From: an uncultured bacterium
GTDB taxonomy: Bacteria > Actinomycetota > Actinomycetes > Mycobacteriales > CAJCIY01
Assembly (NCBI GenBank): GCA_964247525.1
Contig: CAXTUZ010000020.1
Coordinates: 1-19,024, forward strand
Length of the DNA stretch: 19,024 bases
Reading direction: 5' to 3'
How positions within the stretch are numbered: position 1 is the first letter of the stretch; the number at the start of each line of letters is the position of its first letter. The notes under the pieces are model-generated. The model worked only from the letters and a program-made list of their open reading frames with translations, made no database searches and was not told the DNA's origin. The position numbers and the translations under genes are program-made. Below are positions 503 to 19,024 of this stretch, piece after piece.

Positions 503-554
503 CGGCCAACGCAGACTCCGGCCGCCATGCGCCGCTGCACGGAAGGGGACACCG

Positions 555-2018: not shown

Positions 2019-2053
2019 CGACCCGGTCCGGCGGCACGAGCAAGGGAGGATCC

Positions 2054-4516
<2,463 letters not shown>

Positions 4517-4639
4517 CCCGGTGTACTTGCGCCCGCCGCGGCGCGGTTCGATGATGGCGGGCGCGTGTACATCCGGCTCGTGCCGCACGTCGCGCATCTC
4601 GTCACGCTCGCGCGCACTGCGCGTACCGAGGGAGAACAC

Positions 4640-4906: not shown

Positions 4907-4923
4907 CCACAAGGAAGGTCGGC

Positions 4924-5499: not shown

Positions 5500-6709
5500 G
5501 GTGGACGCGCACCTAGGCGATATCGCGTTCGAAGGAACATTTGCGCAGGTGCAAGAACACTTCCTTGCCAAAGGCTGGTCCGACGGGCTGCCGGTAGTTC
5601 CGCCGACGGCGGAGGCGGTCGGCGCTTTTCTTGCTTTTACCGACCTTGCAGCCGATGACACGTTGGGAATGATCCGCCCGTCCCGAGCCCAGGTCACGCT
5701 CACGTCGGTCGCGGTGAACGGGGTCATGGCCGGGTGCCGGCCGGAATACATGCCGATTCTTGTCGCGATCGCTCGTATCCTCGTCGACCCTGAGTTCTGG
5801 ACGAAGGACGCGGGCGCGACCCCGGGCATGGAGCCGATCGTCGTCGTCAGCGGGCCGCTGATCGAGGCCCTGGAGTTCAACTATCTGCAAGGCGTGCTGC
5901 GGATCGGGCGCCAGGCGAACGCATCGATCGGGCGCTTCACCCGGCTGTTCATGCGGAACGTGGCCGAGCTGCGGATACCGCCGGGGAACACCGACAAAGG
6001 TGCGATCGGCATGAACTTCCACGTGGCCCTGCCGGAGAACGAGGCCGCCGTACGAGCCTTGGGATGGCCCACCTTCGGCGACGAACACGGCTGCCCGCCG
6101 GGGGCAAATCTCGTCACGATTCTCGGGCTCCTGTGTTCCACCGCGCCGATCTACACGGCGGGTGAGGATCCCAAGGTTCATCTCGACAAGATCGCCCTGT
6201 TCCTCGGCGACCTGTCGGCGTCGTGGGTCGGAGTGTCGTTGTTGTTTCCCGGTCACTGGCATCCGCTGCTCGTGCTCAGTCCGCAGACGGCCCGCATTCT
6301 CGCAGCGGGTGGATACGACAAGCCGGCAATTCGGCGGTACCTCCACGAGAAGGTGTGGATCTCTCCCCGGAAGCTCGTGGATTACTGGGCGACGGGCGAG
6401 CGCGGGCCGGATGTGTTCGTACCGGAGCCCAATTTCTCCGGAGCGAACAGGGAGGCGTTGGCGGCGGCGTTTCCGGGTCTGCAGGAAGCACTCTCGGCGG
6501 ACGTACTCAGCGAAGAAGCCACGGTGCCGGTGTTCCCCTGGCCCGAGCAGATCGAGATCGTCCTCGCGGGGGAACCGCGCTATCACCAGTCCCGCGGATA
6601 TCTCACGAACCATCGGTTCGGGACGCCGGTGAGCCAGGTGGTCGAGCTGCCCCAACGATGGGACGAGCTCTTCGCGGACGCCCTGACCCGGTGGGCTGCG
6701 CTGGCCTGA
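5492..6709 (+). CDS. Hypothetical protein (405 aa), translationally coupled to the candidate selenoprotein
   Basis: ATG at 5492 overlaps the upstream stop by 8 nt (ATGAGTGA). Coding-like throughout (…GWSDGLPVVPPTAEAVGAF…, …GANLVTILGLLCSTAPIYTAGEDPK…). I cannot assign it to a family from sequence alone. The antisense ORF 5513..6655 is a shadow. Confidence 0.7.
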   Translation: MSEVDAHLGDIAFEGTFAQVQEHFLAKGWSDGLPVVPPTAEAVGAFLAFTDLAADDTLGMIRPSRAQVTLTSVAVNGVMAGCRPEYMPILVAIARILVDPEFWTKDAGATPGMEPIVVVSGPLIEALEFNYLQGVLRIGRQANASIGRFTRLFMRNVAELRIPPGNTDKGAIGMNFHVALPENEAAVRALGWPTFGDEHGCPPGANLVTILGLLCSTAPIYTAGEDPKVHLDKIALFLGDLSASWVGVSLLFPGHWHPLLVLSPQTARILAAGGYDKPAIRRYLHEKVWISPRKLVDYWATGERGPDVFVPEPNFSGANREALAAAFPGLQEALSADVLSEEATVPVFPWPEQIEIVLAGEPRYHQSRGYLTNHRFGTPVSQVVELPQRWDELFADALTRWAALA

Positions 6710-6842
6710 GGGTCAGAGCTTCGAGCGCCGTCACTCCGCGGGTAGCTCTGCGCGTCGCTGGTCCCGAATGCGCCGTGTCGCTGGCCGCCGCCACCGGCTG
6801 ACACGACGTTACGCTGCGATGACGCGCCTGAAGGAGACACCG

Positions 6843-8036
6843 ATGACCTGGAATCGCGACAGTACGGCGATCGTCGGCATCGGGTCGACAGACTTCTCGC
6901 GGAACTCCGGTCGAAGCGAGCTGAGGCTCGCGGTCGAGGCGAGCGGCGCGGCGCTCGAGGACGCCGGCATCGATGTTCGGAGCGTCGACGGCATCGTCCG
7001 CTGCGAGGCCGATCGGGTGTGGCACAACGACCTGGCTGAAGCGCTGGGAATCCCGAATCTCACCTATTGGGGCGCGTGCGGGCCGGGCGGCGTGTCGCCG
7101 GCGGGGCAGATCGCGCAGGCGGTCGGCGCGATCTGCAGTGGGCAGGCCTCGGTCGTCCTGTGCATCCGGGCCCTCAACGGCTACTCCGATCTCCGGATCG
7201 GGAGCATGACCAAGACAGCCGGCCCGATCACTGCCGGCGGTAACGGCAGCTACGACGAGTTCTACGCGCCGTACGGATTCGGCGGCGCTCCGGCCGCGGC
7301 GTACGCCATGGCGGCGCGGCGCCACATGATCGAGTACGGGACCACCGAGGAGCAGCTCGGCCGGATCGCCCTCGTTTGTCGGGAGAACGCGAACCGCAAT
7401 CCGCGGGCCCAGATGTACGAGCGGCGGATGACGATGGCGGACTACCTCGACAGCCCCAAGGTCGCCACTCCGCTCAAGCGCTTCGACTGCTGCCTTCAGA
7501 CGGACGGCGCCTGCGCGGTTGTGGTGACGAGCGCCGAGCGTGCTCGCGACTCGGCCCGGACGCCCGCGTACATTCGGGCAGTCGCCATGGGCAGCGGACC
7601 GCGCCCTGGTTTCGGCATGATCGACACGGTGCTGGCGCGCGAGAGCATCACCTCGTGGCCCTCGCGCTTCGCCGCCCGGACCCTCTACGAGCGGGCTGGT
7701 CTCGGTCCCGCCGATATCGATGTGGCGCAACTCTACGATTGCTTCACGATCACGGTCCTGATCCAGATCGAGGACTACGGATTCTGCGCGAAGGGCGACG
7801 GCGGTCCGTTCGTTGAGAGCGGCGCTATCGCCCGCGACGGCAGCATTCCCATCAACACCGCCGGCGGTCAGCTGTCCGAGGGCTACATCCCGGGCATGAA
7901 CGCGATCGTGGAAGGCGTCCGCCAGATCCGCGGGACATCCACCACCCAGATCGCCGGCGCACAGACGTGCCTCGTCACCTCCGGTACCCCACCGCCCACC
8001 GGCGCCATGATCCTGGTCGGGGAGGGAGCACGGTGA
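6843..8036 (+). CDS. Thiolase-like lipid-transfer protein (Ltp / SCP-x-type thiolase family)
   Basis: RBS AAGGAGA precedes the ATG at 6843. Thiolase-fold signatures: IVGIGSTDFSRNSGRSE, ALVCRENANRNPRAQ, C-terminal NTAGGQLSEGYIPGMNAIVEGVRQIRG. Confidence 0.85.
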   Translation: MTWNRDSTAIVGIGSTDFSRNSGRSELRLAVEASGAALEDAGIDVRSVDGIVRCEADRVWHNDLAEALGIPNLTYWGACGPGGVSPAGQIAQAVGAICSGQASVVLCIRALNGYSDLRIGSMTKTAGPITAGGNGSYDEFYAPYGFGGAPAAAYAMAARRHMIEYGTTEEQLGRIALVCRENANRNPRAQMYERRMTMADYLDSPKVATPLKRFDCCLQTDGACAVVVTSAERARDSARTPAYIRAVAMGSGPRPGFGMIDTVLARESITSWPSRFAARTLYERAGLGPADIDVAQLYDCFTITVLIQIEDYGFCAKGDGGPFVESGAIARDGSIPINTAGGQLSEGYIPGMNAIVEGVRQIRGTSTTQIAGAQTCLVTSGTPPPTGAMILVGEGAR

Positions 8037-8434
8037 ACCTGGTCGTACCGGCCACCGACTGGCCCGAGACCGCGGGCTTCTTCTCCGCGGCCGCGCAGGG
8101 ACAGCTCGCCGTGCGCGCCTGCCGCACCTGCGGGCGCCTGCTGCACCTGCCACGGAGCATCTGCTCGGAGTGCGGGAGCGCCGACCTCGAGTGGCGGCAG
8201 GTGTCCGGACGCGCGCATCTCTACTCCTGGACGACGATCTACCTCCGTCATCCTTCCTTCGCCTCACCCTTCACGATGGTGTTGGTCGAACTCGACGACG
8301 CTCCCGGTGTTCGGCTGGTGGGCCGACTTCCGGGCGAACCGCCGCTCGAGGTGGGAATGCCGATGCAGGCCTGGTTCGAGATGCTCGAGGGCGGGGCTAT
8401 GTTGCCGCAATTCGCCCCGGTCGGAAGGGACTGA
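8033..8434 (+). CDS. Zn-ribbon/OB-fold protein (DUF35 family), partner of the Ltp thiolase-like protein
   Basis: GTG start overlaps the Ltp stop (GTGA). Zn-ribbon CRTCGRLLHLPRSICSECGS is followed by an OB-fold region (HLYSWTTIYL…MVLVELDD…VRLVGRL). This is the typical Ltp-DUF35 gene pair. Confidence 0.8.
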   Translation: MNLVVPATDWPETAGFFSAAAQGQLAVRACRTCGRLLHLPRSICSECGSADLEWRQVSGRAHLYSWTTIYLRHPSFASPFTMVLVELDDAPGVRLVGRLPGEPPLEVGMPMQAWFEMLEGGAMLPQFAPVGRD

Positions 8435-8441
8435 CATAGCA

Positions 8442-9899
8442 GTGCTCGCCGCGCCGACTCACGTGTTGCCACGCGCCGCGTTGCTGATCGGGGATCAGCG
8501 GCTGACCGACACGAGTGCGGGCTGGTACGACCACATCTACGCCGCGAACGGCAAGGTCACCGCCTCGGTCCCGCTTGCCGGAGCCCGGGAGGTCGACCTC
8601 GCGGTGCGGGCCGCTCGCTCTGCGCTTCCTGCGTGGCGGGCGCTGCCGGCGGGAACCAGGCGGAGCCTGCTGCTTCGGCTGGCCACGCTGTTGCGCGAGC
8701 GCCGGAGCGACTTTGCGACGGTCTTCGTCATCGACAACGGCGCGCCGCTCGCGGCGGCGAAAGGGACCCCCGCGCGGACCGCTGACCTGTTCGAGTATCA
8801 CGCCGGGTGGGCCGACAAGATCAGCGGGGAAGTAGTCCCGGCGTGGCCGAGGCCTGCCTTGGACTACACAACGCGTGAGCCCTTCGGTGTCGTGGCGATC
8901 ATGTCGCCCTGGAACGGACCGCTGCTGTCGCTGGGAACGCGGGTGGCGCCGGCGCTCGCTGCCGGCAACACGGTGGTCCTCAAGCCTTCGGAGATCGCGC
9001 CGTGGAGCGCCCTCGCGTTGGGAGAGCTGTGTGGTGAGGCGGGCTTCCCACCCGGCGTCGTGAACGTGATTCCGAGTGGTCCCGAGGGCGGCGCGGCGCT
9101 CGTACGACATCGGGGCGTGGACAAGGTCCACTTCACCGGCAGCGGGGCGACGGCGAAGCACGTCCTGGCCGGCGCGCGGGAGAACCTCACTCCGGTGGGC
9201 CTGGAGCTGGGCGGGAAGAGTGCGAACGTGATCTTCGGGGACGCCGATCTCCCCCGGGCGGTTTCGCAGGCCATCAGCGCGGTCACGGTCCTGTCCGGCC
9301 AGGCCTGTATCAGTGGAAGCCGGGTGCTGGTCGAGGCATCCGTCTACGACGAGGTGGTCGCCATGACCGCGGATGCGCTTGCCGCCAAGAAGATGGGCGA
9401 TCCGCTCGATCCGAGCACGGTGATGGGCCCGGTGGTCAATCAGACCGCAGTGGATCGAATTCTCAGCATGATCGACCGTGCCAAAGGCTCGTCCGCGCGG
9501 CTCGTCCTCGGCGGGGAACGACTCGGCGGCGACCTTTCCGACGGCTACTTCGTCGCGCCGACGATCTTTGCTGACGTCGACAACCACGACGACCTTGCCC
9601 GGCACGAGGTGTTCGGCCCGGTGCTCTCGATGCTCCGGTTCGAGACCGAGGCCGAGGCGGTGGCAATCGCGAACGACACTTCGTACGGGCTCGCCGGTTA
9701 TCTCTGGACCAACGATCTCCAGCGTGCCCATCGGGTCGCCGCGGCGCTGGAGACCGGCATCATCTGGGTCAACGGATTCGACGGAATTCCGGCGGGCGCG
9801 CCGTTCGGGGGCGTCAAGCAGAGCGGGCACGGACGGCTCGGCGGCATCGACGCGATCCGCGAGTTCAGTTACGTCAAGAACGTCTGGATCGGTCTCTGA
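8442..9899 (+). CDS. NAD(P)-dependent aldehyde dehydrogenase (paralog of 555..2018)
   Basis: Collinear and roughly 65-70% identical to the first ALDH by eye (LLIGDQ…YDHIYAANGKVTA…PLAGA; ELGGKSANVIF; GQACISGSRVLV). Start is assigned to the GTG at 8442 after RBS GGAAGGGA; the GTG/TTG codons at 8463-8466 are alternatives. Confidence 0.85.
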   Translation: MLAAPTHVLPRAALLIGDQRLTDTSAGWYDHIYAANGKVTASVPLAGAREVDLAVRAARSALPAWRALPAGTRRSLLLRLATLLRERRSDFATVFVIDNGAPLAAAKGTPARTADLFEYHAGWADKISGEVVPAWPRPALDYTTREPFGVVAIMSPWNGPLLSLGTRVAPALAAGNTVVLKPSEIAPWSALALGELCGEAGFPPGVVNVIPSGPEGGAALVRHRGVDKVHFTGSGATAKHVLAGARENLTPVGLELGGKSANVIFGDADLPRAVSQAISAVTVLSGQACISGSRVLVEASVYDEVVAMTADALAAKKMGDPLDPSTVMGPVVNQTAVDRILSMIDRAKGSSARLVLGGERLGGDLSDGYFVAPTIFADVDNHDDLARHEVFGPVLSMLRFETEAEAVAIANDTSYGLAGYLWTNDLQRAHRVAAALETGIIWVNGFDGIPAGAPFGGVKQSGHGRLGGIDAIREFSYVKNVWIGL

Positions 9900-9908
9900 A
9901 CACGGGTT

Positions 9909-10568
9909 TCAGCACACGAGGGCGACGGCGAAGCCGTCCCAGCCCTTGCTTCCCACGGTCTGCAGCGCGGTGCCATCGAGGCGCGGATCGGTGGCGATGA
10001 GGTCGAGAGCCGCACGCGTGCCCAGGACGTCGGCGTCCCCGCCGACACCGTCGAGCACTCTGCCGTCGCGAACGACGTTGTCGACGACGATGACGCTGCC
10101 CGGGTGGGTGAGCGTTATCGCATGGGTGACGTACTGCGCGTTGTTGCGTTTGTCCGCGTCGATGAAGACCAGGTCGTACGGGTCGGTGCCGGCGAGCTGG
10201 GGCAGCAGGTCGAGGGCTGCGCCCACCTTGATGTCGACGATGTCGCCGAGGCCGGCGCTGATGATCGAGGACCTGGCCACGGCGGCGTGGGCCGGATCGA
10301 TCTCGAGGGTGGTCAGGAGCCCCTCGGCGGGCAGGGCCCGGGCGAGCCAGATCGAGCTGTAACCGCCGAGCGTTCCGACCTCGAGAATCCTGCGCGCCCG
10401 CAGCATCTTCGCCAGCAGGTGCAGGAACTTTCCCTGGGTCGGCGACACCGCGATGGGAGGGAGACCGGCATGCGTCGCGGCCGCGAGCGCTCCTGCGAGC
10501 GCCGCGTCGTCCGGGGCGAGCAGTCCACTCAGATAGTCGTCGACCTCGTCCCACGATTGCGGTGACAT
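9909..10568 (-). CDS. Class I SAM-dependent O-methyltransferase (family 3, caffeoyl-CoA OMT-like)
   Basis: LEVGTLGGYSSIWLA and VFIDADKRNN motifs. ATG (MSPQSWDE…) at 10568 with GGAGG ~10 nt upstream. The TTG at 10595 in the track is less likely. Confidence 0.85.
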   Translation of the reverse strand: MSPQSWDEVDDYLSGLLAPDDAALAGALAAATHAGLPPIAVSPTQGKFLHLLAKMLRARRILEVGTLGGYSSIWLARALPAEGLLTTLEIDPAHAAVARSSIISAGLGDIVDIKVGAALDLLPQLAGTDPYDLVFIDADKRNNAQYVTHAITLTHPGSVIVVDNVVRDGRVLDGVGGDADVLGTRAALDLIATDPRLDGTALQTVGSKGWDGFAVALVC

Positions 10569-10600
10569 GGCGGTCGAGCCTCCAGAGCGCGGCAACGGGC

Positions 10601-10632
10601 GAACAGGAAAATCTTAGACGTATGTTGAGCGG
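10601..10632. promoter_or_regulatory. AT-rich divergent intergenic region; candidate promoter(s)
   Basis: GAACAGGAAAATCTTAGACGTATGTTGAG is a conspicuous AT-rich island in a ~68% GC background, lying between divergent gene starts. A TATGTT (-10-like TANNNT) sits 7 nt upstream of the GTG at 10633, so the mRNA may be leaderless. Confidence 0.3.
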
Positions 10633-11112
10633 GTGCTTCCGAGTGAGGCGGCGCCAGAGGATGCCTGGTACGCCGCACCGAGCCCGGGACTGCGGGCCGA
10701 CCAGCTGCGCGCACTCGGTCTCGTGCTCGCGGTCGCCTGTTTGCTCCTCGGTTCGGGTGCGGCGTTGACCGGTGCGTTGCTCTCTGACCGCCACCCGCTT
10801 TCGATCGTCGGTTACGCCGTCTCGGCGCTGGCGGCGGTCGGCAGCGCACTTCTTGCGCGATCGCCGGGTCGACGCCCGGTGATGGGCCAAGCAAGCGCAC
10901 CCGCGCCGGACGGGACGGACCTCGGTCGTGACCTGCTGCGACTGCATCCCGTGCTTGCGCCGTGGGCGATCATCGGCGTTGCCGCCGGACTCGGGGTTCT
11001 GATCGCGGGGGCGGCGACGCAAGGCTCGTCCGAGCCCGGCCCGATCGGCCCGACCCGGATCTGTCTCGCCGGGGCGGCGTGCCCCACTCCGTCACTGACG
11101 AGTTCCCCTTGA
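10633..11112 (+). CDS. Hypothetical small membrane protein (two predicted TM helices)
   Basis: GTG start. Hydrophobic stretches ALGLVLAVACLLLGSGAALTGALL and APWAIIGVAAGLGVLIAGAA. No recognisable family. Confidence 0.4.
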   Translation: MLPSEAAPEDAWYAAPSPGLRADQLRALGLVLAVACLLLGSGAALTGALLSDRHPLSIVGYAVSALAAVGSALLARSPGRRPVMGQASAPAPDGTDLGRDLLRLHPVLAPWAIIGVAAGLGVLIAGAATQGSSEPGPIGPTRICLAGAACPTPSLTSSP

Positions 11113-11154
11113 CCGGCAAACACGGCAGACTGTGCCTCTCACGAGGAGGATCGA

Positions 11155-11376
11155 ATGGGATTTCTGGACAAGGCGCTCAAGAGCGGCAGGGATGCGGCGC
11201 AGGGCGCGGCGGTCAAGGCGAAAACGTTCGCCGCCGAGCACACCGATCAAGTGAAAGGCGCGATCGACAAAGCCGAAGGTCTTGCCGACAAGGCGACCAA
11301 GGGTAAGTACACGGACAAGATCGAAAAGGCGGGGTCGAAAGCCGACGAGGCCGTCGACAAGTTCAAGAAGGAATAG
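11155..11376 (+). CDS. Small Lys/Ala-rich protein, 'MGFLDKA…' type (MT0933/Rv0909-antitoxin-like or CsbD-like stress protein)
   Basis: Strong RBS GAGGAGGA before the ATG. 73 aa: MGFLDKALKSGRDAAQGAAVKAKTFAAEHTDQVKGAIDKAEGLADKATKGKYTDKIEKAGSKADEAVDKFKKE. Local GC is visibly lower than in neighbouring genes. The N-terminus matches the MGFLDKAK start seen in small actinobacterial antitoxin-like proteins. Confidence 0.7.
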   Translation: MGFLDKALKSGRDAAQGAAVKAKTFAAEHTDQVKGAIDKAEGLADKATKGKYTDKIEKAGSKADEAVDKFKKE

Positions 11377-11391
11377 CCGTCCTGCGGTGAA

Positions 11392-12396
11392 TCACCGGGC
11401 GGTCAGCGAGCTGCGTCCGCAGCGCCATGCGCTCAGGACGTGTGCCTGCCAACGCTCGGCAAGGTGGATCGATGCGAGGGCTCCGAAGACGAAATCGGCT
11501 TCGAGTTCCGGGAAATCGCGCAGCAGAGGTTCGACCATCCGGTGACGAGCGATCTGCTCGTGGACCGCGTCGGCCTCGACGTGCTCGTCGTAGAACGCGG
11601 ACACATCCGGCGGGAAGCCGAGGCGTCGAAGTGCCCGCGAGATTCGGGCGGACCCCGGCGGCGAGGTAATCTCGACGACGGCGAACTGGCCGAGTGCGGC
11701 CGCGCGATGTGCCCGGTGCAGCCCGCACAACGACATGATGTTGACCTCGGCAAGCGTGACCGCGGGCGCTTGATCGAGATAGGCGCCGTACGAGGAGTCG
11801 AGCCCGAGCGACACCATGAGCTCGGCGAAGAGTTGCGAATGCATCCGAGTGGGATGACCGGCGCCGTACTCGTCGTGGACGATGGACACGAGCGCCGACT
11901 TCACCGCACCGTCCATCCGGGGGATCACCCAGGACTGCGGATCGGCTTCCTTCAGGTGGTAGAGCGAGCGGTGTGCGACGTACTCGCGCATCTGTTCGAT
12001 CGTTCCGCGACTCATCAACTCGTACGAGACGCCGTGCCCCTCGACAGGCTCCTCAAGGAGGCCGCCGAGCACCTCGTCGGCGCGCCGGCCCTCGACCGGT
12101 ACGTCCCGGCGGAGCCCGTCGATGAAGCGCCCCTCGAGTTCTGCCCTGAACGCAAGGAGTTTCGGGTTCCACTCGAGCCCGTCGTCGATGCCGGCGAACC
12201 CGCGGTAGTGCAGCTCGTAACAGACGTAGAGCGCAAGGTGCAGGTCCTCGCCGTAAGGGTCTGTGTCCGTGACCTCGGCCGGGAGTACGTCCTCGTCACC
12301 GAGAAGGAAGGCGAGCAGGCTCCGCGAGTACGGACCACGCGCTTCCGGTAACCGGGGTAGGACGCTGTGGCGGGTCGGTGCCTCGGTCACCGTCAT
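11392..12396 (-). CDS. Iron-containing redox enzyme family protein (heme-oxygenase-like diiron fold, PF14518-like)
   Basis: 334 aa, helical. The …DLHLALYVCYELHYRGFAGIDD… motif is characteristic of this family. Its ATG overlaps the upstream CDGSH stop (ATGA). Confidence 0.65.
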   Translation of the reverse strand: MTVTEAPTRHSVLPRLPEARGPYSRSLLAFLLGDEDVLPAEVTDTDPYGEDLHLALYVCYELHYRGFAGIDDGLEWNPKLLAFRAELEGRFIDGLRRDVPVEGRRADEVLGGLLEEPVEGHGVSYELMSRGTIEQMREYVAHRSLYHLKEADPQSWVIPRMDGAVKSALVSIVHDEYGAGHPTRMHSQLFAELMVSLGLDSSYGAYLDQAPAVTLAEVNIMSLCGLHRAHRAAALGQFAVVEITSPPGSARISRALRRLGFPPDVSAFYDEHVEADAVHEQIARHRMVEPLLRDFPELEADFVFGALASIHLAERWQAHVLSAWRCGRSSLTAR

Positions 12397-12608
12397 GCCG
12401 GCACCTTTCGGGCCTTGATGCGGTGGCTGGTGTCGCAGAAGGGGTAGCGCCGACTACGACGGCAGGTGCACAGAGCCACGACGGGACGGTCGGAGTGGAC
12501 GATGGTGCCGTCCGGCAACTCGATGGCGACAGGCCCGTCGATGAGAACCGGGCCTTCACGGCTGAGCCGAATCCGTACCGGAGGCTCCGGCGACACGTCC
12601 TCAGGCAC
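12393..12608 (-). CDS. CDGSH iron-sulfur domain protein
   Basis: 71 aa with C-T-C-x3-R-x-Y-P-F-C-D-T-S-H, a CDGSH-type 2Fe-2S motif (CxC…PxCDG[SA]H). The GTG start overlaps the upstream MTase stop by 8 nt. Confidence 0.75.
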   Translation of the reverse strand: MPEDVSPEPPVRIRLSREGPVLIDGPVAIELPDGTIVHSDRPVVALCTCRRSRRYPFCDTSHRIKARKVPA

Positions 12609-13302
12609 CTCGCTCCGCCACGATGAGAACGAGTTCCTCGTCGTTGCGGCCGCCGAGCAGTCCTCGCTCGCGGAGCATCGGGGCGCGCGCCCGCAGCACC
12701 GGTCCGAACGGGTTGCGCATCCGCGCCGCCACGTGCGGTCGAAGGCCCACGGTGCGCAGCTTATGCATTGTCTCGTCGACCCCGGTAACCTCGGATTGGA
12801 CGAGGGCGAGCGTGCCCGTCGCGGACAGAGCGGCCGGGGCGCCGGCGCAGATCCGGTCGATGAGTGCCCGGCCGTCGGGACCGGCGTCCCAGCAGCGGGC
12901 GGCGCGGTGGCGGGGCAGCTCGTCCGTCGGTGCCGGAACGTACGGCGGGTTGGTGATGATCACGTCGAAGAGCTGACCCCGTACCGGGGCGTAAAGATCT
13001 CCGTGATGCACTCGGATCGGACAGCCGCGACGCCTCGTGTTGACCCAGGTCGCGATAGTCGAGCGGAACGACAGGTCGACCGCGGTAACGGTCGCCGCGC
13101 CACCCTCCGCAGCGGCGATGGCAAGCGCCCCGGTCCCACTGCACAGGTCGAGCACGTGCCGATCCAGAGTCAGACCTTCGTGTCGCAGCAGTGCGGCGAC
13201 GAAGTGGGTGTCGGCTTGAGGTCGGTACACACCCGGAGGGCGCAGCAGCAATGGCACGTTGGACCCGTGCCCCGGCATCGGGTCGAGAAACCCATATGTC
13301 AC
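12601..13302 (-). CDS. HemK/PrmC-like SAM-dependent methyltransferase ('NPPY' small-domain MTase)
   Basis: LDLCSGTGALAIAAA (motif I) and VIITNPPYVP (the NPPY motif of N5-glutamine / N6-amino methyltransferases). Start is ambiguous between the GTG at 13302 and the ATG at 13278. Confidence 0.8.
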   Translation of the reverse strand: MTYGFLDPMPGHGSNVPLLLRPPGVYRPQADTHFVAALLRHEGLTLDRHVLDLCSGTGALAIAAAEGGAATVTAVDLSFRSTIATWVNTRRRGCPIRVHHGDLYAPVRGQLFDVIITNPPYVPAPTDELPRHRAARCWDAGPDGRALIDRICAGAPAALSATGTLALVQSEVTGVDETMHKLRTVGLRPHVAARMRNPFGPVLRARAPMLRERGLLGGRNDEELVLIVAERGA

Positions 13303-13347
13303 ACGGTCGTCATGAATGGCGGCGTTGCCGACAACCGGCGTTTCCGC

Positions 13348-14151
13348 TCAGGACAGTTCCGCGAGCGCCAGCACGTCATCGGGGGGAAGTACGCCGTCCA
13401 CGGAGGCGGTGACCGTCAGACCGTGCAGGGTGATGTGCCCGCCGTCATTGGTGAGGAAGGCCGTGTCCGCCGCGTCGCGACCGGTGCCGATACGGACGAG
13501 GGAGCTTCGCGGGGCGAGCAGCGTCGAGTCGATGACGTACCACGTACCGGCGATGAAGGCCTCCGCGACGGCATGGAAATCCATGGGATCCAGGCCCGGC
13601 GCATACACCGCGACGAGACGCGCCGGGAGACCCTTCGCGCGGAGAAGTGCGACGGCCAGGTGCGCGAAGTCACGGCACACGCCTCGGCCGGCGAGCAGGG
13701 TGTCGACGGCGCCGTCGGTGGGTCCGCTGCTGCCGCTCACGTAGTCCAGTTGCGTCCCGACCCACGAGGAGATGGCGGCGAGGACATCCGTCGGGTCGGT
13801 GATGTCGTGGAAAAGGCGCGACGCGAAGCCGATCATGCGGTCGGATTCGCAATAGCGGCTGGGGCGCGTATAGAGCAGCTCATCGGAGATGTCCCGCGGC
13901 GGAGGCGGTGCCGCGCCGTCGAGGCGCGCCCGGTACTCGAGATCGACCGCGCCCGGCTCGGCGTCGACGAGCCAGATCCGTCCGCCGTGCGGCGCACCGA
14001 CCGTACGAAAGGGCTGGTCGCGCCCCTCGTAGGTCACAGCGAGGTGCTCCTCGGTGCGGTAGGCCTCCGGGTGGGCGACACCGACCTGGAACGCCAGCCG
14101 CGAGGCCCCCTGCACCTCGACCGAGATGTTGACACCGACATCGCGGATCAT
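13348..14151 (-). CDS. Transglutaminase-like cysteine protease family protein
   Basis: 267 aa from ATG at 14151 (MIRDVGVN…), with GAAGGAACAGGGA upstream. Core motif GRGVCRDFAHLAVALLRAKGLPARLV (Cys nucleophile), with downstream His and Asp residues. The track's 552-aa ORF is an artefactual 5' extension across the neighbouring gene. Confidence 0.8.
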   Translation of the reverse strand: MIRDVGVNISVEVQGASRLAFQVGVAHPEAYRTEEHLAVTYEGRDQPFRTVGAPHGGRIWLVDAEPGAVDLEYRARLDGAAPPPPRDISDELLYTRPSRYCESDRMIGFASRLFHDITDPTDVLAAISSWVGTQLDYVSGSSGPTDGAVDTLLAGRGVCRDFAHLAVALLRAKGLPARLVAVYAPGLDPMDFHAVAEAFIAGTWYVIDSTLLAPRSSLVRIGTGRDAADTAFLTNDGGHITLHGLTVTASVDGVLPPDDVLALAELS

Positions 14152-14189
14152 TCCCTGTTCCTTCGTCCGGTGGCGAGTAGCCGGTGTGT

Positions 14190-15257
14190 CTACGCGAGTA
14201 CGAGTTGGCGGACCATCTCCCGACGGCTGTTGACGCCGAGCTTCACGAAGATCGACTTGAGATGGTCCTGCACAGTGTGCGGTGACAGGAACAGACTTGC
14301 AGCGATCGCGCGGGTGGCCGCGCCTTGGAGGACAAGAGCGGCCACCTCCTGCTCGCGCGGGCTCAGGCCCCGCGCCGCCAGCGCCAATGCGCTGATGTCG
14401 GCGGGGGTGGCGGCATCGATGGTGATGACGACGTCGTCGGGGCGGTCGGCCGGCGCGTCCGCCGCATCGAAGGTGGTGGCCCGGATGGTGAGCCAGGTCC
14501 CGGAACTCCCGACGGCGCGGGTCGTCGCCAGGGCCGGACTGCTCCTGGCGGTTTCGGTGGCGGCAAGCAGGCTGGTGGGAAGTGATCCGTTGTCCAGGCC
14601 GCCGAGGTCGTCGATCCGGGCACGGGCCGCCGGCGTGATGTTGAGGACCTGGTCGGCTCGGTCGACGACGATGACGGCGGGACCGCCGCCCGAGGGCGAC
14701 GTGCCGCGCGGTGCGCTGAAGATCGCGTTCCGTATCAGTTCGGCGAGTTGGCCGTGAACGGACGCCACGATCTGCGCCTCCTGCGCGGTGAACGACGGCT
14801 CCCCCGGCCCCCGGTAGAGCGCGAGCGCTCCCCAGACGAGTCCCTGCTTGCGGAAAGCCACCCGAAGTTCGTCCGTAAACCCGAAGCGCGGTGCGAGGAA
14901 GTCGCGGAAGCGTCGGCACGACTGCGGAGACCCTCCCGTATCGATGGACAGCACCCCGACCGGATCCGCACGCAACGCGATGTCGGCGAACAAGTTGATA
15001 TCCCACTGCCCGTACTCGGCGGCGGCAAAGTCCTCGTCGCCGATCTCGAGTGGAGTGGACTTGTACGCCCCGCTGATCAGTCCCGTCGAAGGATCGGTGG
15101 TGGCGAGACAGGCGAACGTGAAGGGCACCACCCGGTTGACGGCGTCCCAGACCGCAGCCGCGAGGGCCGGCATGCGGCCGCCGCGACTCGTTGCCGCCGC
15201 GAGCTCGTCAGCCAGGGAACCGCACCGCACCGTTGTCACCCGCCAATTCTGAACCAT
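14190..15257 (-). CDS. LuxR-family transcriptional regulator with N-terminal GAF-like sensor domain
   Basis: C-terminal HTH: LSPREQEVAALVLQGAATRAIAASLFLSPHTVQDHLKSIFVKLGVNSRREMV. Start is uncertain among the ATG at 15257, the TTG at 15299 and the ATG at 15173. Confidence 0.8.
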   Translation of the reverse strand: MVQNWRVTTVRCGSLADELAAATSRGGRMPALAAAVWDAVNRVVPFTFACLATTDPSTGLISGAYKSTPLEIGDEDFAAAEYGQWDINLFADIALRADPVGVLSIDTGGSPQSCRRFRDFLAPRFGFTDELRVAFRKQGLVWGALALYRGPGEPSFTAQEAQIVASVHGQLAELIRNAIFSAPRGTSPSGGGPAVIVVDRADQVLNITPAARARIDDLGGLDNGSLPTSLLAATETARSSPALATTRAVGSSGTWLTIRATTFDAADAPADRPDDVVITIDAATPADISALALAARGLSPREQEVAALVLQGAATRAIAASLFLSPHTVQDHLKSIFVKLGVNSRREMVRQLVLA

Positions 15258-15342
15258 GCGGCGGCCGGCCGCGGAAGCCGATACGCAAAGTCCCCACAAT
15301 TCTGGGATGGTCGCGGGCCGTCTCGTCCCCGACTCTCGCTAC

Positions 15343-16122
15343 ATGACAACTGACACCCACAGCCACACCACCCGATGCTGGTGGAACCCGCAGGACGCAC
15401 GATGGATGTGCGGCGAGGCAACGGGCGCGGGCGCATATCCCGAAGCCCCCCTCGCGGGAGACATCGACGCCCCGCTCGTCGATGTACGGGACATGATCGT
15501 GGTCCATACCGCTCTGCTGCGCGAGTTCCGCCTCGCGCCGTCGGCGGTCACGCGCGTCGAGGCCGGCGCGGTCCGACGGGCGGCGGTCGTCGACCGGCAC
15601 CTGGGATTCGTGTGCGACCTCTTGCACCATCACCACGCCGGCGAGGACGCCCTGCTGTGGCCCAAGGTCCGCGAACGAGTGCTTGCGGCCACGCAGATCA
15701 TCGACGACATCGAAACCCAGCACGCCCGGATCTCCACGGCTATGGAAAGCGTCACGACCGCGCGCGCCCACTGGGTGCAGGACCCGGACACCGAGAACCG
15801 GGCCGCGCTTGCCGCGGCTTTGCGCTCCCTGTACGACCAGCTCAAAGAGCATCTCGATCTCGAGGAGCGCGCAGTCCTTCCGCTGGCGGCGGTGGCGCTC
15901 ACCGACGCCGAGTGGCACGCCGTCGGCGAGGCGGCCGTCGCGTCCACGCCCAAGGCCGCGCTACCGCTGGTGTTCGGGATGTTCGCCTACGAGGGTGATC
16001 CGGCAGTATTGCGCGGCATGCTCATGGCGGCACCCGCACTGCCGCGACTACTGCTCCCGCGCATCGCACCCCGGGTCTTCGCCCGCCGTGCCACTCAGGT
16101 CCACGGAACGGCGCGGCCCTAG
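15343..16122 (+). CDS. Hemerythrin (HHE cation-binding) domain protein
   Basis: DMIVVHTALLREF, HHHHAGEDALLWP and HLDLEERAVLP are typical hemerythrin-like His/Glu ligand segments. An unusual N-terminal CWWNPQDARWMC segment is present. The start could instead be the ATG at 15307. Confidence 0.65.
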   Translation: MTTDTHSHTTRCWWNPQDARWMCGEATGAGAYPEAPLAGDIDAPLVDVRDMIVVHTALLREFRLAPSAVTRVEAGAVRRAAVVDRHLGFVCDLLHHHHAGEDALLWPKVRERVLAATQIIDDIETQHARISTAMESVTTARAHWVQDPDTENRAALAAALRSLYDQLKEHLDLEERAVLPLAAVALTDAEWHAVGEAAVASTPKAALPLVFGMFAYEGDPAVLRGMLMAAPALPRLLLPRIAPRVFARRATQVHGTARP

Positions 16123-16199
16123 TAGCGCGTTCACGGCGCCGACGCCGCTGCGCACTGCCATGATGGGTGGTAGCTGCCGCACTGTGAGGAGTCCTGAGC

Positions 16200-17417
16200 A
16201 TGTCGGAGCTTCACCTCGGTTCGACTCCGGCGTCGGCGTCCACTCCGCCGGGTACGGCCGATCACGGTGGTCTGGTGCTCGCTCCGCCCGAGGCGGTTGT
16301 CGACGTCGGCGAAGAACAGGCTGCGGGCGCGATCCCCATCGATCCGGTCAAGCTCGGCGAGCTGCAGGCGCGAGCGGCGACCTTCGCGACCGAACTCTCG
16401 GCGCTCGATCCGCGATCGCCCGAGTTCGCCGCCAAGGTCGGCACCGTCACGAGCATGGGCGATGCCGATCTGCGGGCGTCCGCGGCAGTATCCAGCCGGA
16501 TGCTCGAGCGCCCGGCTGCGGCGGCACGGAAGAACGGTGGGGATGCGCAGAGCCGATTGGCGGCAACCCTGGTCGACCTCCGCGGCACCATCGCCGAATT
16601 GGATCCCAATAGGGCCGACCTGCACGGCCCGAAGAGGGTGCTGAAGTTCCTGCCCGGCGGCGACAAGATCGAGCGCTATTTCGCCAAGTACCAGTCGGCG
16701 CAGACTCACCTGAACGTGATCATTCACGCATTGGACTCGGGGCAGGCCGAACTCCGCAAGGACAACGCCGCGATCGAGACCGAGAAGGTCAACATGTGGG
16801 CGACGATGGGCAAGCTCAGCGAGTACAACGAGCTCGCCAAGGCGTTGGACTCGGCGGTGACGGCCAAGGTGGCCGAGCTGCAAAGCGCGGACAAGGCGAC
16901 GCACGCGCAGGCATTGACGGCGGACGCCCTGTTCGCCGTCCGGCAGCGCCGCCAGGACATCATCACGCAACTGGCGGTGTCTGTTCAGGGCTACATGGCG
17001 CTCGAACTCGTTCGCAAGAACAATCTCGAACTCATCAAGGGTGTGGACCGGGCGCAGACCACGACTGTTGCGGCACTGCGTACGGCCGTCATCGTGGCTC
17101 AGGCACTCGATCGGCAGCGACTCGTCCTGGATCAGATCACAGCGCTCAACTCCACAACTGCGGACCTGATCCAATCGACGTCCGAGCAGCTCAAGACCCA
17201 AGGGGCGAACATCAATCAGCAGGCGGCATCGAGCACGATAGACGTCGCCCGACTGCAGGCCGCCTTCGACAACGTTTTCCAGACCATGGACGCGATCGAC
17301 ACGTTCCGCGCCCAGGCCGTGGACAGCATGGCGCATACCGTCGTCGCGCTGGAGGCTCAGCTCGAGCGGGCTACGCCGTACCTCGAACGCACCCGCCGCA
17401 GTGAAGACCCGCGTTAG
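16200..17417 (+). CDS. TelA-like (toxic anion resistance / KlaB family) protein, putative
   Basis: 405 aa, all-helical. RBS GAGGAG before the ATG. Overall size and character resemble the TelA family; no catalytic motifs. The assignment is tentative. Confidence 0.5.
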   Translation: MSELHLGSTPASASTPPGTADHGGLVLAPPEAVVDVGEEQAAGAIPIDPVKLGELQARAATFATELSALDPRSPEFAAKVGTVTSMGDADLRASAAVSSRMLERPAAAARKNGGDAQSRLAATLVDLRGTIAELDPNRADLHGPKRVLKFLPGGDKIERYFAKYQSAQTHLNVIIHALDSGQAELRKDNAAIETEKVNMWATMGKLSEYNELAKALDSAVTAKVAELQSADKATHAQALTADALFAVRQRRQDIITQLAVSVQGYMALELVRKNNLELIKGVDRAQTTTVAALRTAVIVAQALDRQRLVLDQITALNSTTADLIQSTSEQLKTQGANINQQAASSTIDVARLQAAFDNVFQTMDAIDTFRAQAVDSMAHTVVALEAQLERATPYLERTRRSEDPR

Positions 17418-17456
17418 CCGGCCGTCAACGGCCATTCGCACATTGGGGCGCGAGCG

Positions 17457-17696
17457 ATGAGCGGGGCAGCTGACTCACCCGTCGGTCTCGCCGGGCGAAT
17501 CGTCACCGCGACCCGCGGAGATGCCGGGTCGGGCGAAGTCGAGTTGCAGATCCGCGGCGGCACAGAGATCTTTATCGCCCGGTCGAGCGATCCGCTGCCG
17601 GTCGGGGCCGCCGTGATCGTGTTGTCGTCGTTGGGCCCGCGAACGGTTGTCGTGTTTCCCTGGGCCGACCCGCTTGACAGCATCCTCAACCTGTAG
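17457..17696 (+). CDS. Small NfeD-like OB-fold protein (flotillin-associated), putative
   Basis: 79 aa: …GRIVTATRGDAGSGEVELQIRGGTEIFIARSSDPLPVGAAVIVLSSLGPRTVVVFPW. This resembles the beta-barrel C-domain of short NfeD/YuaF proteins that are encoded immediately upstream of flotillin genes. No TM segment is visible. Confidence 0.45.
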   Translation: MSGAADSPVGLAGRIVTATRGDAGSGEVELQIRGGTEIFIARSSDPLPVGAAVIVLSSLGPRTVVVFPWADPLDSILNL

Positions 17697-17724
17697 CACC
17701 CGCCAACCAAGGAGCATGTGATTC

Positions 17725-19014
17725 ATGTTCGGATACAACGTGCCAGCACCCGACGAAGCCATGCTCATTTCCGGTGGCAAACCGAAGGATTCCGAAGCCC
17801 CGTTCAGGGTTGTGACCGGACGCGGCGCATACGTACTCCCGTTGTTTCGGAAGGTGCGGTTCATCACCTTGTCGATGTCAGAGGCCGAGGTCGAGGAAAA
17901 CTGCGTGACGAAGCAGGGCATCGCATTACGGGTGAAAGCGGTGATCGCGTTCAAGGTGGGCAATGACACCGCCTCGATCGTCAACGCGTCATTACGGTTT
18001 CTCTCCGACCAGTCGCAGATGTCTGTGCTCACCGGCAGAATCTTCTCCGGCCATCTCCGGTCCATCATCGGATCGATGACGGTCGAGGAGATCGTGACCG
18101 AGCGCCAAAAACTGGCCTCGGAGGTGCTGGACGGATCCAAAGAGGAGATGGCGAAGATCGGTCTGACGGTCGACGCCCTGCAGATTCAGTCCATCGACGA
18201 CATGGGGCTCGGGTACATCGCGGCGATGGCAGCGCCGCACAACGCCGCGATCCAGCGTGCGGCCAAAGTCTCTCAGTCGCAGGCGAATCAGGCGGCCGCC
18301 GAGGCGGAGCAGGCGTCCATGCGTGCCCAGGCGGAGTACGTGCGCCAGACCGAGGTCGTCCAGGCGCAGTACGCGGCGGACGTAGAAGCCGCAAAGTCCG
18401 CGGCGGCGGCCACTGCGGCGATGGCCGCCCAGCAGTCGGCGCGGAACCAGGCCAACTACGAGGCGGAGACCGCAGTCACCCGATCCAAGGCCGCCCAGGT
18501 CGCCGCGGAGGCAGCGCAGGAGTCGGACCGCAACCAGGCGGACTTCAGCCGCCAGACCTCGGTCGCGAAGGCTCAGTTCGCAGCCGAAACGCAAGCAGCG
18601 CAGGCGAAAGCGGACCAGTCCGGGCCATTGGCGCACGCGATCGCTCAGCAGCAGGTGATCGATGCCCAGACGGCGCTCGCGCAACAGCAGGCTGAGCTTG
18701 CCCGGCAGACGCTCGTCTCCACCGTCATCCGGCCTGCCGAGGCCGACGCGGAGCGCGTCAAGATTCTGGCCGCCGCCGACGCCGAGCGTACGAAAATCCT
18801 TGCGGAAGCGGCTCAGTCCCACAACCGGGTGGCGCTGGACCAGCAGCTCATCAATCAGCTTCCGCTGATCGTGGAGAAGGCGGCGCAAGGCTTGGCGGGT
18901 TCCAACCTTACCGTCCTCAACGGCTCGGAAGGCGTGACCGAGGTCGTCTCCTCGCTCGTAGGTCAAGGACTCGCGGTGCTGGATTCGATCAAGAAAGGCG
19001 TCGGCGGCTTGTAG
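17725..19014 (+). CDS. Flotillin / SPFH (band-7) domain protein
   Basis: RBS AAGGAG 10 nt before the ATG. SPFH domain (…RKVRFITLSMSEAEVEENCVTKQGIALRVKAVIAFKV…TVEEIVTERQKL…) is followed by a long Ala/Gln/Glu-rich coiled-coil with periodic repeats (QAEYVRQTEVVQAQYAADVEAAK… / RNQANYEAETAV… / RNQADFSRQTSVAKAQFAAETQAAQ) and a C-terminal flotillin-like tail. Confidence 0.85.
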   Translation: MFGYNVPAPDEAMLISGGKPKDSEAPFRVVTGRGAYVLPLFRKVRFITLSMSEAEVEENCVTKQGIALRVKAVIAFKVGNDTASIVNASLRFLSDQSQMSVLTGRIFSGHLRSIIGSMTVEEIVTERQKLASEVLDGSKEEMAKIGLTVDALQIQSIDDMGLGYIAAMAAPHNAAIQRAAKVSQSQANQAAAEAEQASMRAQAEYVRQTEVVQAQYAADVEAAKSAAAATAAMAAQQSARNQANYEAETAVTRSKAAQVAAEAAQESDRNQADFSRQTSVAKAQFAAETQAAQAKADQSGPLAHAIAQQQVIDAQTALAQQQAELARQTLVSTVIRPAEADAERVKILAAADAERTKILAEAAQSHNRVALDQQLINQLPLIVEKAAQGLAGSNLTVLNGSEGVTEVVSSLVGQGLAVLDSIKKGVGGL

Positions 19015-19024
19015 ACGGACCGCC

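Follow-up and report, generated by a model that had tools for sequence, protein, structure and literature searches.

The question raised by a 19,024-nt stretch of actinobacterial DNA (contig CAXTUZ010000020.1, positions 1-19,024; hereafter 'the window') is whether a run of adjacent genes on its minus strand, between positions 11392 and 14151, corresponds to a single biochemical system, and what chemistry such a system would perform. A first-pass annotation, made from the sequence of the window, had described these genes as an overlapped four-gene operon, encoding in turn a transglutaminase-like protein (TGase), a methyltransferase (MTS), a CDGSH iron-sulfur protein and an HDO (heme-oxygenase-like diiron oxidase/oxygenase), and had noted that no characterised function was known for such a set; consistent with that remark, no paper describing the set was found in the literature searched. 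Four open reading frames (ORFs) with the domains so named are indeed present inside that interval, all on the minus strand, and the domain content of each was borne out by Pfam or TIGR profile matches. Comparison across genomes further demonstrated that the MTS, CDGSH and HDO genes (collectively, 'the trio') are a genuinely co-inherited unit, and that the conserved functional unit is three genes and not four.

A scan using one genome per species returned a relative of the HDO in at least 550 species; homologues of the protein number in the thousands, the closest non-self match being 62% identical. The best 80 loci from those species, all of which belong to Actinomycetota (Streptomyces, Pseudonocardia, Nocardiopsis, Saccharopolyspora, Actinomadura, Knoellia, Mycobacterium, Mycolicibacter and others), were searched with the proteins of the window by tblastn, and linkage was counted within 4 kb. 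All three members of the trio were found together in 74 of these loci, with an MTS gene accompanying the HDO gene in 76 and a CDGSH gene adjoining it in 75. Six loci departed from this pattern: contig ends truncate two of them (L012 and L076), one carries only the CDGSH-HDO pair (L020), in another the CDGSH gene lies at a distance of 6 kb (L045), and two contain an HDO gene alone (L067 and L072). The order present in the window, MTS-CDGSH-HDO, was observed in 31 loci (a count that includes three Nocardiopsis loci, L002-L004, taken from a separate look at those three), and the order HDO-MTS-CDGSH in 29, mainly from Streptomyces. In the other 16 complete loci the MTS gene resides on the strand opposite the HDO gene, mostly in a convergent arrangement in which an MTS-CDGSH pair is transcribed towards the HDO gene; this convergent order was found in mycobacteria, Kitasatospora and Actinosynnema, while three loci are divergent, with a gene inserted between. 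The strongest evidence for a shared function of the three products is that their linkage survives this much rearrangement, having been kept through at least four gene orders.

All-against-all clustering of the ORFs of at least 70 amino acids (aa) that surround the trio revealed no further gene family common across genera. Several accessory genes do recur within particular lineages: a PF10017 EgtD-like amino-acid N-methyltransferase gene directly follows the HDO gene in eight loci (L002, L005, L010, L011, L015, L017, L018 and L029), a GCS2 carboxylate-amine ligase gene adjoins the trio in four (L006, L027, L070 and L074), a fusion of an FAD-oxidoreductase to a Rieske domain (DAO-Rieske) is found in three Streptomyces loci (L021, L050 and L073), and a PGM1-type ATP-grasp ligase in one (L044). 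These accessories share a theme of amino-acid or amine chemistry, and may offer a hint of the class of substrate. A cluster for a natural product, including a ribosomally synthesised and post-translationally modified peptide, was also considered and rejected: no precursor-like or core biosynthetic family is conserved across genera among the clustered neighbours, no precursor-peptide gene was seen among those that recur (at a minimum length of 70 aa), and no core natural-product enzyme was found by Pfam either in the ORFs of the window of at least 150 aa, which were those scanned, or among the recurring neighbours that were scanned. The genes that surround the trio in the window belong to catabolism and to stress.

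The same synteny comparison separates the TGase gene from the trio. In none of the 80 loci did the search place a TGase homologue within 10 kb of the trio, and none is present in the Mycobacterium smegmatis-like contigs described below, at a locus that encodes an HDO-CDGSH fusion, or at the locus of the closest HDO homologue (L085, 62% identity), where an unrelated gene precedes an MTS-CDGSH-HDO series. Three TGase orthologues of 65-72% identity, from Jatrophihabitans and from two large metagenomic contigs, were themselves found in unrelated neighbourhoods, and their contexts together with the 80 loci rule out conservation of all four genes. A pairing of TGase with MTS was recovered only in a near-identical relative, represented by a 99%-identical TGase (P0242) and an MTS (P0241; same 90% cluster), each of which was traced to a single Logan contig of 4655 bp that the two presumably share. 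The proposal that the four families would co-occur across genomes was thereby sustained for the trio (74 of 80 loci) and not for the TGase (none of 80). Because the TGase gene is adjacent only in this lineage, the further suggestion of a glutamine or amide substrate, which had been drawn from the pairing of a transglutaminase fold with a glutamine methylase, loses its basis. The protein itself has a predicted catalytic triad, assigned by motif, of Cys159 (in GVCRDFAH), His193 (in DFHAV) and Asp208 (in VIDST); its gene is a lineage-specific neighbour outside the conserved system, which may nevertheless be co-transcribed with the trio here.

The junctions between the genes in the window follow the same division. 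The MTS and CDGSH genes share an 8-nt overlap, GTGCCTGA at 12601-12608, and the CDGSH and HDO genes a 4-nt overlap, ATGA at 12393-12396; a similar style of overlap is visible in independent gene calls from Nocardiopsis, Pseudonocardia and one metagenome-assembled genome, and overlaps of 4-8 nt within the trio suggest translational coupling. The TGase and MTS genes are instead separated by a gap of 45-69 nt, extending from the TGase stop at 13348 to an MTS start at either GTG 13302 or ATG 13278 (the latter being the start used in the database entry for the MTS, P0121), so that the initial description of four overlapped genes, while exact for both junctions within the trio, was overstated. The regulator upstream of the TGase gene is a LuxR-family protein on the same strand, as had been described, at a 38-nt gap, yet the GAF domain also assigned to it has no Pfam match at E<=0.01. 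It is not conserved with the trio, giving weak matches in only two of the 80 loci, both distant from it. The TGase and LuxR genes are local neighbours here, and may share a transcript with the trio. Consensus scans of positions 11000-15600 returned neither a sigma-70 promoter nor an intrinsic terminator or Rfam family, such scans being uninformative in an actinobacterium at 68% GC, and the predicted folding of a 91-nt stretch across the TGase/MTS gap was not significant (z -0.28).

At the core of the conserved module is the HDO gene. A hidden Markov model (HMM) alignment to SznF, with numbering that was checked by counting along the alignment against the published enzyme (PMC7848743; D185, E189 and M193 were reproduced), positions seven predicted metal ligands, all of them invariant in the 23 homologues used to assess conservation. 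The diiron motif of three His and three Glu/Asp residues that had been proposed as a check is therefore present by that alignment, and is joined by a seventh ligand: the extra glutamate, E150, lies in an invariant HLKEADP sequence and aligns with SznF E189 in LSEASP, the additional ligand of auxiliary helix 2; the structural model has a low predicted local distance difference test (pLDDT) score, of 57-64, for residues 151-180. A large set of residues in the auxiliary helices is likewise invariant. When a profile of the 23 homologues was compared with PDB sequences, the matches were HrmI (4.7e-13), SznF (3.5e-10) and RohS (3e-7); the AlphaFold2 model of the HDO is all-helical (pLDDT 84.4), and its best Foldseek matches were HrmI, SznF, FlcD and RohS, with CADD and BesC ranking next, each with a probability of 1.00. 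E189 has been shown to be a seventh ligand that is conserved in N-oxygenating HDOs, absent from olefin-forming ones and carried by approximately 25% of HDOs, and the largest cluster in the corresponding sequence network consists of 1,780 uncharacterised, predicted N-oxygenases and is rich in sequences from non-pathogenic Streptomyces and Mycobacterium (PMC7848743). The HDO family described here is probably that cluster, and no characterised member of the family was found in the literature searched.

Going by its ligands and by the structures closest to it, the HDO is predicted to be an N-oxygenase, and its relationship to the enzymes concerned merits some detail. SznF, which acts in streptozotocin biosynthesis together with the methyltransferase SznE, HrmI/BelK and RohS possess the same fold; SznF, HrmI and RohS are the best matches among solved structures in both sequence and structure, and the ligand set of SznF is matched in full, including its auxiliary-helix glutamate. 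The pairing of an N-methyltransferase gene with that of an HDO, as in SznE and SznF, is likewise repeated in the trio. The differences are also considerable. The window HDO is only 16-21% identical to these enzymes, and it lacks the C-terminal cupin of SznF (a single PF14518 domain occupies its 334 aa, and its homologues span 320-370 aa), such that an N-nitrosation step is not expected. Furthermore, the trio is located outside a natural-product cluster, is stress-regulated and is found in hundreds of species, and its HDO has a dedicated (predicted) CDGSH partner, whereas SznF, HrmI and RohS have none.

The CDGSH protein, a member of the type-4 class, is well conserved in its own right: across 78 family members, conservation reaches 97% or more for the three Cys and one His ligands and for most of the surrounding motif. 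Nearly all of these members have CDTSH in place of CDGSH; apart from this substitution of Thr for Gly, the window protein agrees with the type-4 consensus C-x-C-x2-(S/T)-x3-P-x-C-D-G-(S/A/T)-H. Its PDB relatives include the type-4 CISD 3tbm. Proteins of this type are homodimers, are the prevailing type in Actinobacteria and are distinguished by a Lys or Arg following the His ligand (PMC3174974); that paper treats the structures and distribution of type-4 CISDs, and in its searched passages operons, gene neighbours and methyltransferases are not mentioned. Like Ralstonia RsCISD (3tbm), the window protein is a single domain of approximately 70 aa in which N-terminal beta strands are followed by the 3Cys-1His motif and a basic residue after the His, and by analogy with 3tbm and its mitoNEET relatives it would hold a redox-active [2Fe-2S] cluster in a homodimer. 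It departs from known type-4 CISDs in its CDTSH motif, and in that a specific enzyme partner is indicated for it by synteny and by gene fusions. Two independent natural fusions were identified, joined at opposite ends (P0015, CDGSH-linker-HDO; and P0475, HDO-CDGSH, at a locus without an MTS gene), and CDGSH-HDO gene pairs without an MTS gene occur at two further loci (L001 and L020). Eight N-terminally extended HDO homologues were inspected as candidates for additional fusions and rejected, having no CDGSH motif and starts that were probably mis-called; P0475 was the only real addition.

Because it is fused to the HDO at either end in those two proteins, the CDGSH protein is read as the electron donor of the HDO, and is predicted to be its dedicated, one-electron [2Fe-2S] donor. 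Monooxygenase-type turnover of a diiron site consumes two electrons per cycle. The DAO-Rieske fusion of some Streptomyces loci could act as the upstream reductase for the CDGSH protein. The closest precedent for such an arrangement is MboA/MboB of mangotoxin biosynthesis, which a 2026 paper presents as possibly the first HDO with a redox partner of its own, and in which the iron-sulfur partner is needed for turnover (PMC13185094). There, as in the trio, an HDO is encoded beside an iron-sulfur redox protein, and the functional logic is the same as that proposed here. MboB, however, is an NAD(P)H/flavin/Fe2S2 reductase, whereas the 71-aa CDGSH protein has no flavin or NAD(P)H site and so would require a further reductant, and MboA is a six-ligand desaturase/acetylenase, whereas the HDO of the trio is a seven-ligand enzyme. 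In the literature searched, no relevant paper was found for CDGSH proteins together with HDOs or with the term 'iron-containing redox enzyme', and no function was found for bacterial CDGSH proteins.

The MTS belongs with the HemK2/MTQ2 proteins, scoring 95.5 bits against a cutoff of 87 for TIGR00537; among PDB entries it matches human N6AMT1/HemK2 best (E 5e-10), and its homologues are named 'HemK2/MTQ2 family protein methyltransferase' by NCBI. By the precedent of the family, the NPPY motif points to methyl transfer to a nitrogen. The possibility that this gene is simply the housekeeping prmC, which would have undermined its assignment to a separate system, was rejected: the protein scores 76.4 bits against a cutoff of 199.1 for TIGR03534, its match begins only at model position 64, and the N-terminal domain that binds release factors is missing. 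It also falls far below the cutoffs of the PrmB and PrmC_rel_meth models. No prfA gene was seen among the ORFs of the window of at least 150 aa, and the gene calls and annotations for the window and for those related loci that were examined include neither a release-factor gene nor a Trm112-like one. The MTS thus has in common with HemK2/MTQ2/N6AMT1 and with PrmC/PrmB a class I fold dependent on S-adenosylmethionine (SAM) and the NPPY motif, while differing from PrmC and PrmB in the absence of an N-terminal substrate-binding domain, and from HemK2/MTQ2 in being paired with a CDGSH protein and an HDO, with no Trm112-like partner seen.

The occasion on which the trio is expressed is suggested by its promoters. 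In 25 of the 29 HDO-first (Streptomyces-type) loci (L016-L080; for example L064, L038 and L060), the HDO gene is preceded by GGGTAC-N9(10)-ATG, whereas only 1.1% of windows drawn at random from these loci contain the pattern; the motif lies approximately 20 nt upstream of the HDO start, and a GNNT/GGTGAC-like element is located 15-17 nt further up. Promoters of SigB homologues in Streptomyces coelicolor display a GGGTAC/T -10 element, with transcription beginning 8-10 nt downstream (PMC8346170), and the HDO-first motif matches these and is predicted to be a promoter of this kind that yields a leaderless transcript. Five mycobacterial loci carry GTTT-N15-17-GGGTA-N9-11-GTG/ATG before the HDO gene, a pattern that is the published SigF consensus (PMC4694148), and two more (one mycobacterial, the other from Actinosynnema) have a GGGTA -10 element at the same spacing and no clear GTTT. 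In the divergent Streptomyces loci, GTTT-N15-AGGTAC-N9-ATG precedes the MTS gene. The window itself contains a degenerate element, GGGTTT-N9-ATG, which bears a weak resemblance to these promoters, recurs in locus L007 and could be the trio's own promoter. In two mycobacterial loci (L071 6982-8233 and L077 2326-4652), genes judged from their sequence to be STAS (anti-sigma antagonist-like), GAF-ANTAR-like and RsbW-like are situated between the HDO gene and the CDGSH-MTS pair; they encode partner-switching components of the sort through which SigF is controlled.

A probable connection to measured regulation is provided by M. smegmatis. The published 32-mer of the SigF promoter of MSMEG_1773 (PMC5445863) is matched exactly in three metagenome contigs; 12 nt downstream of it begins the gene for a 340-aa HDO that is 49% identical to that of the window, followed by a convergent CDGSH gene (60% identity) and a gene for a 222-aa MTS (40% identity). 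One of those contigs also contains the promoter 32-mers of MSMEG_1774 and MSMEG_1777, in the expected order, and MSMEG_1771 has been described as a 222-aa 'methylase, putative' (PMC9679996). MSMEG_1771, MSMEG_1772 and MSMEG_1773 are therefore very probably the orthologous trio, in the convergent arrangement as opposed to the MTS-CDGSH-HDO order of the window. The SigF dependence of these genes was measured by others: in a sigF mutant, expression fell in exponential and stationary phase, respectively, by log2 values of 6.17 and 5.69 for MSMEG_1771, 5.91 and 6.43 for MSMEG_1772, and 5.98 and 4.09 for MSMEG_1773 (PMC4694148). All three are induced following stress preconditioning (PMC5445863), the MSMEG_1773 protein is elevated in a pafBC mutant, and deletion of MSMEG_1771, which had been carried out solely as a test of mycofactocin methylation, leaves that methylation unaffected (PMC9679996). 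Annotated as a putative methylase and two conserved hypothetical proteins, they are known solely as markers of SigF expression. Assignment of the trio to a general-stress and stationary-phase regulon of the SigB/SigF type is extended to Streptomyces and other mycobacteria as a prediction from the conserved promoters.

Two further comparisons were made with the same genomic island. The neighbourhood of the trio in M. parafortuitum (L082) differs in Pfam content from MSMEG_1766-1794 and was uninformative. In Pseudonocardia broussonetiae, the CDGSH-HDO pair that lacks an MTS gene (L001 9107-16661) lies near genes for a P450 and a type IB topoisomerase, and products of the same names appear in published tables of the SigF-regulated MSMEG_1766-1794 genes.

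Considering these lines of evidence together, we judge it slightly better than an even chance that the trio is a stress-induced, three-protein module in which the HDO N-oxygenates a nitrogenous substrate, the CDGSH protein re-reduces the HDO, and the MTS N-methylates that same substrate. In such a scheme, (i) the diferrous HDO would activate O2 and oxygenate a nitrogen nucleophile of the substrate, as its ligand set and nearest structures suggest; (ii) a CDGSH dimer would dock on the HDO and pass electrons to the diferric site for turnover, as suggested by the two fusions and by near-universal adjacency; and (iii) the MTS would N-methylate the substrate before or after oxygenation, following the logic of SznE and then SznF, a step for which co-inheritance is the evidence. 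The domain identities, conserved ligands, synteny, fusions and promoter motifs are observed, and the SigF dependence of MSMEG_1771-1773 was measured elsewhere; what we infer is the equation of those genes with the trio, the N-oxygenation, which way electrons flow, the sequence of steps and the class of substrate, and for the last of these the accessory enzymes and the precedents among HDOs favour a free amino acid, an amine or a short peptide. The more encompassing proposition, that a three-part machine for N-methylation and N-oxygenation operates under stress-sigma control across Actinomycetota, its HDO having the CDGSH protein for a dedicated redox partner, is put forward tentatively, and with appreciably less than even confidence.

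Several observations weigh against this scheme. The precedents of the MTS family favour a protein or RNA target; MTS/HemK enzymes classically act on proteins and nucleic acids while characterised HDOs act on amino acids, peptides and fatty acids, so that prior expectations for the two enzymes diverge. The seventh ligand is suggestive and not diagnostic, because a 2026 review places the N-oxygenase HrmI among the six-ligand enzymes (PMC13108848). Each fusion is known from a single metagenomic contig, of 1.7 kb for P0015 (the CDGSH portion of which is truncated) and 6 kb for P0475. The MTS and CDGSH genes are always adjacent and in that order wherever the HDO gene is found, and because that order is fixed while the HDO gene moves, the CDGSH protein could equally serve the MTS. 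With respect to regulation, no canonical GGGTAY is present in positions 11000-15400 of the window, and the identity of MSMEG_1771-1773 was deduced from promoter 32-mers in metagenome contigs and a match in length, and not from a reference genome. The published promoter of MSMEG_1771 was not found in the M. smegmatis-like contigs, even when three mismatches were allowed; an IS110-like transposase ORF lies directly upstream of the MTS gene in those contigs (L090 56-1294, minus strand, and also L092), and in that strain the native promoter may have been moved away by an insertion.

Some of these points correspond to distinct explanations for the trio. If the target is a macromolecule, the MTS would methylate a Gln, a Lys or an exocyclic amine of a protein or RNA during stress, the HDO would then hydroxylate that site or oxidatively remove the methyl group, as the eraser to the writer, and the CDGSH protein would supply electrons. 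The MTS passes the cutoff of a protein-methyltransferase model and has N6AMT1/HemK2 as its closest structural relative by sequence, NPPY is invariant in its family, and the trio, a stress-regulon member that in most genomes has no biosynthetic neighbours, is distributed among hundreds of species in a physiological pattern as opposed to that of a specialised metabolite. Set against this are the absence of any known HDO that acts on a folded protein or RNA (CADD modifies its own residues, and MboA a tripeptide), the amino-acid and amine enzymes that recur beside the trio (EgtD-like in eight loci, GCS2 in four, DAO-Rieske in three and PGM1-type ATP-grasp in one), and an MTS that is devoid of PrmC's release-factor-binding domain; on balance we regard a macromolecular target as unlikely. 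Direct protection from stress, whereby the HDO would consume O2, peroxide or reactive nitrogen, the CDGSH protein would serve as a redox or NO sensor or as a donor, and the MTS would have an unrelated role, appears improbable. It would accord with the SigF dependence and stress induction of MSMEG_1771-1773 (identified as the trio by inference), with the SigB-type promoters of the Streptomyces loci, with the stress-themed neighbours of the window (the MT0933/CsbD-like, hemerythrin and TelA genes) and with the precedent of an HDO-like protein from Acinetobacter, DtpC, for which such a role has been proposed (PMC13232832). DtpC is not closely related to the window HDO, however, and the fact that 76 of the 80 loci keep an MTS gene with the HDO gene speaks for a substrate common to both, while the invariant seven-ligand site and the invariant residues of the auxiliary helices resemble a specific substrate pocket.

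The fixed order of the MTS and CDGSH genes raises the further prospect that the CDGSH protein is mainly a partner of the MTS, acting as a metal-binding activator in the manner of Trm112 and rendering methylation sensitive to redox state or iron, with the HDO working independently on the methylated product. Eukaryotic and archaeal HemK2/Mtq2 enzymes do need Trm112, a small zinc-binding partner, and the MTS and CDGSH genes adjoin, and usually overlap, in every gene-order class while the HDO gene shifts around them. The CDGSH fold is unrelated to that of Trm112, though; both known fusions join CDGSH to HDO, whereas no MTS-CDGSH fusion is present among the 120 best MTS homologues, and the CDGSH-HDO pairs and the HDO-CDGSH fusion exist with no MTS gene nearby. 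We accordingly give this arrangement little credence. The least probable of the explanations, to which we attach very little weight, is the original one of four genes forming one obligate system whose target would be a Gln or amide group on a peptide or small molecule. The window does have all four genes running in one direction, with short gaps and no terminator detected; P0242 and P0241 presumably place a TGase and an MTS on one contig; and Gln side chains are recognised by both transglutaminases and HemK enzymes. Opposed to it are the absence of a TGase gene near the trio in all 80 loci, the three unrelated neighbourhoods of its orthologues, a TGase/MTS gap that is unlike the overlapped junctions of the trio, and the lack of a precursor-like ORF among the recurring neighbours of at least 70 aa. 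As a conserved system, the four-gene model of glutamine modification is largely refuted, and both the TGase gene and the glutamine link that was built upon it are to be dropped, leaving the module of HDO, CDGSH protein and MTS as the preferred reading.

Table 1. Positions of the genes, motifs and predicted residues of the trio and of neighbouring features in the window.
Feature	Position	Strand	Basis or remark
HDO, 334 aa, 3-His/4-carboxylate ligand set	11392..12396	-	PF14518, 194.6 bits vs cutoff 28.9, E 1.6e-57
Span of the seven predicted metal-ligand codons	11560..11949	-	HMM alignment to SznF
Predicted ligand E150 (= SznF E189)	11947-11949	-	HMM alignment
Predicted ligand E176 (= SznF E215)	11869-11871	-	HMM alignment
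Predicted ligand H186 (= SznF H225)	11839-11841	-	HMM alignment
Predicted ligand E242 (= SznF E281)	11671-11673	-	HMM alignment
Predicted ligand H272 (= SznF H311)	11581-11583	-	HMM alignment
Predicted ligand D276 (= SznF D315)	11569-11571	-	HMM alignment
Predicted ligand H279 (= SznF H318)	11560-11562	-	HMM alignment
Type-4 CDGSH iron-sulfur protein, 71 aa	12393..12608	-	PF09360, 59 bits vs cutoff 29.5, E 5.5e-16
Cluster-binding motif C47-x-C49-x8-C58-D-T-S-H62, then R63	12423..12470	-	Sequence: C47-T-C49-RRSRRYPF-C58-D-T-S-H62
MTS, HemK2/MTQ2-like class I SAM-dependent N-methyltransferase	12601..13302	-	PF05175; 233 aa from GTG 13302, 225 aa from ATG 13278
NPPY catalytic motif, N118-Y121	12940..12951	-	At least 97% conserved in 78 members
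GGGTTT-N9-ATG, degenerate promoter-like element	13276..13293	-	Just before the alternative MTS start ATG 13278; weak resemblance
TGase, transglutaminase-core putative cysteine protease, 267 aa	13348..14151	-	PF01841, 73.7 bits, E 1.8e-20; PDB 3isr, E 2.7e-37
LuxR-family regulator, GerE helix-turn-helix, BagY/FevT-like	14190..15299	-	PF00196; NF041232 along full length; likely start ATG 15257
MT0933/CsbD-like gene	11155-11376	+	
Hemerythrin HHE gene	15256-16122	+	
TelA gene	16200-17417	+	
SPFH/Band 7 gene	17725-19014	+	
Class I O-methyltransferase gene	9909-10595	-	PF01596
Long ORF	4903-5880	-	No Pfam match
Long ORF	5492-6709	+	No Pfam match
Long ORF	5513-6655	-	No Pfam match

The remainder of the window can be described more briefly. 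The four plus-strand genes that flank the studied interval share a theme of stress; that for the MT0933/CsbD-like protein is convergent with the HDO gene and that for the hemerythrin divergent from the LuxR gene, and the SigF regulon of M. smegmatis also holds a hemerythrin, MSMEG_2415. The O-methyltransferase gene, which shares a strand with the HDO gene and begins some 800 nt downstream of it, was found in none of the 80 loci. Positions 32-9899 of the plus strand encode a catabolic set that is apparently unrelated to the trio (an amidohydrolase fragment, two aldehyde dehydrogenases, a family III CoA-transferase and a thiolase-like protein); the CoA-transferase consists of two matched stretches in a 1254-aa ORF that overlaps the first aldehyde dehydrogenase gene in another frame, and part of that ORF is probably a shadow. 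Between positions 4500 and 6700 the GC content falls to 0.64-0.65, and the three long ORFs listed in the table are without a Pfam match.

None of the families in question is new, and a 2021 study had probably already singled out the HDO clade as a group of predicted N-oxygenases; the literature searched yielded nothing on an association of MTS, CDGSH and HDO, on a CDGSH protein as the partner of an HDO, or on what MSMEG_1771-1773 do. The HDO superfamily is growing rapidly, and the means by which its members are re-reduced in vivo is mostly obscure, one dedicated partner (MboB) having been reported, in 2026. Synteny that persists through rearrangements, fusions in both orientations, an invariant site of the N-oxygenase type and control by SigF or SigB convert three 'hypothetical' genes into a directly testable system, probably represented by MSMEG_1771-1773 in the tractable M. 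smegmatis, for which an MSMEG_1771 deletion strain exists. If the proposed scheme is true, it would provide the first defined physiological role for bacterial CDGSH proteins, and a function for what is probably the largest uncharacterised clade of HDOs; it would also imply that Streptomyces, Pseudonocardia and environmental mycobacteria, when stressed or in stationary phase, make an N-oxygenated and N-methylated metabolite, or a protein mark of that kind.

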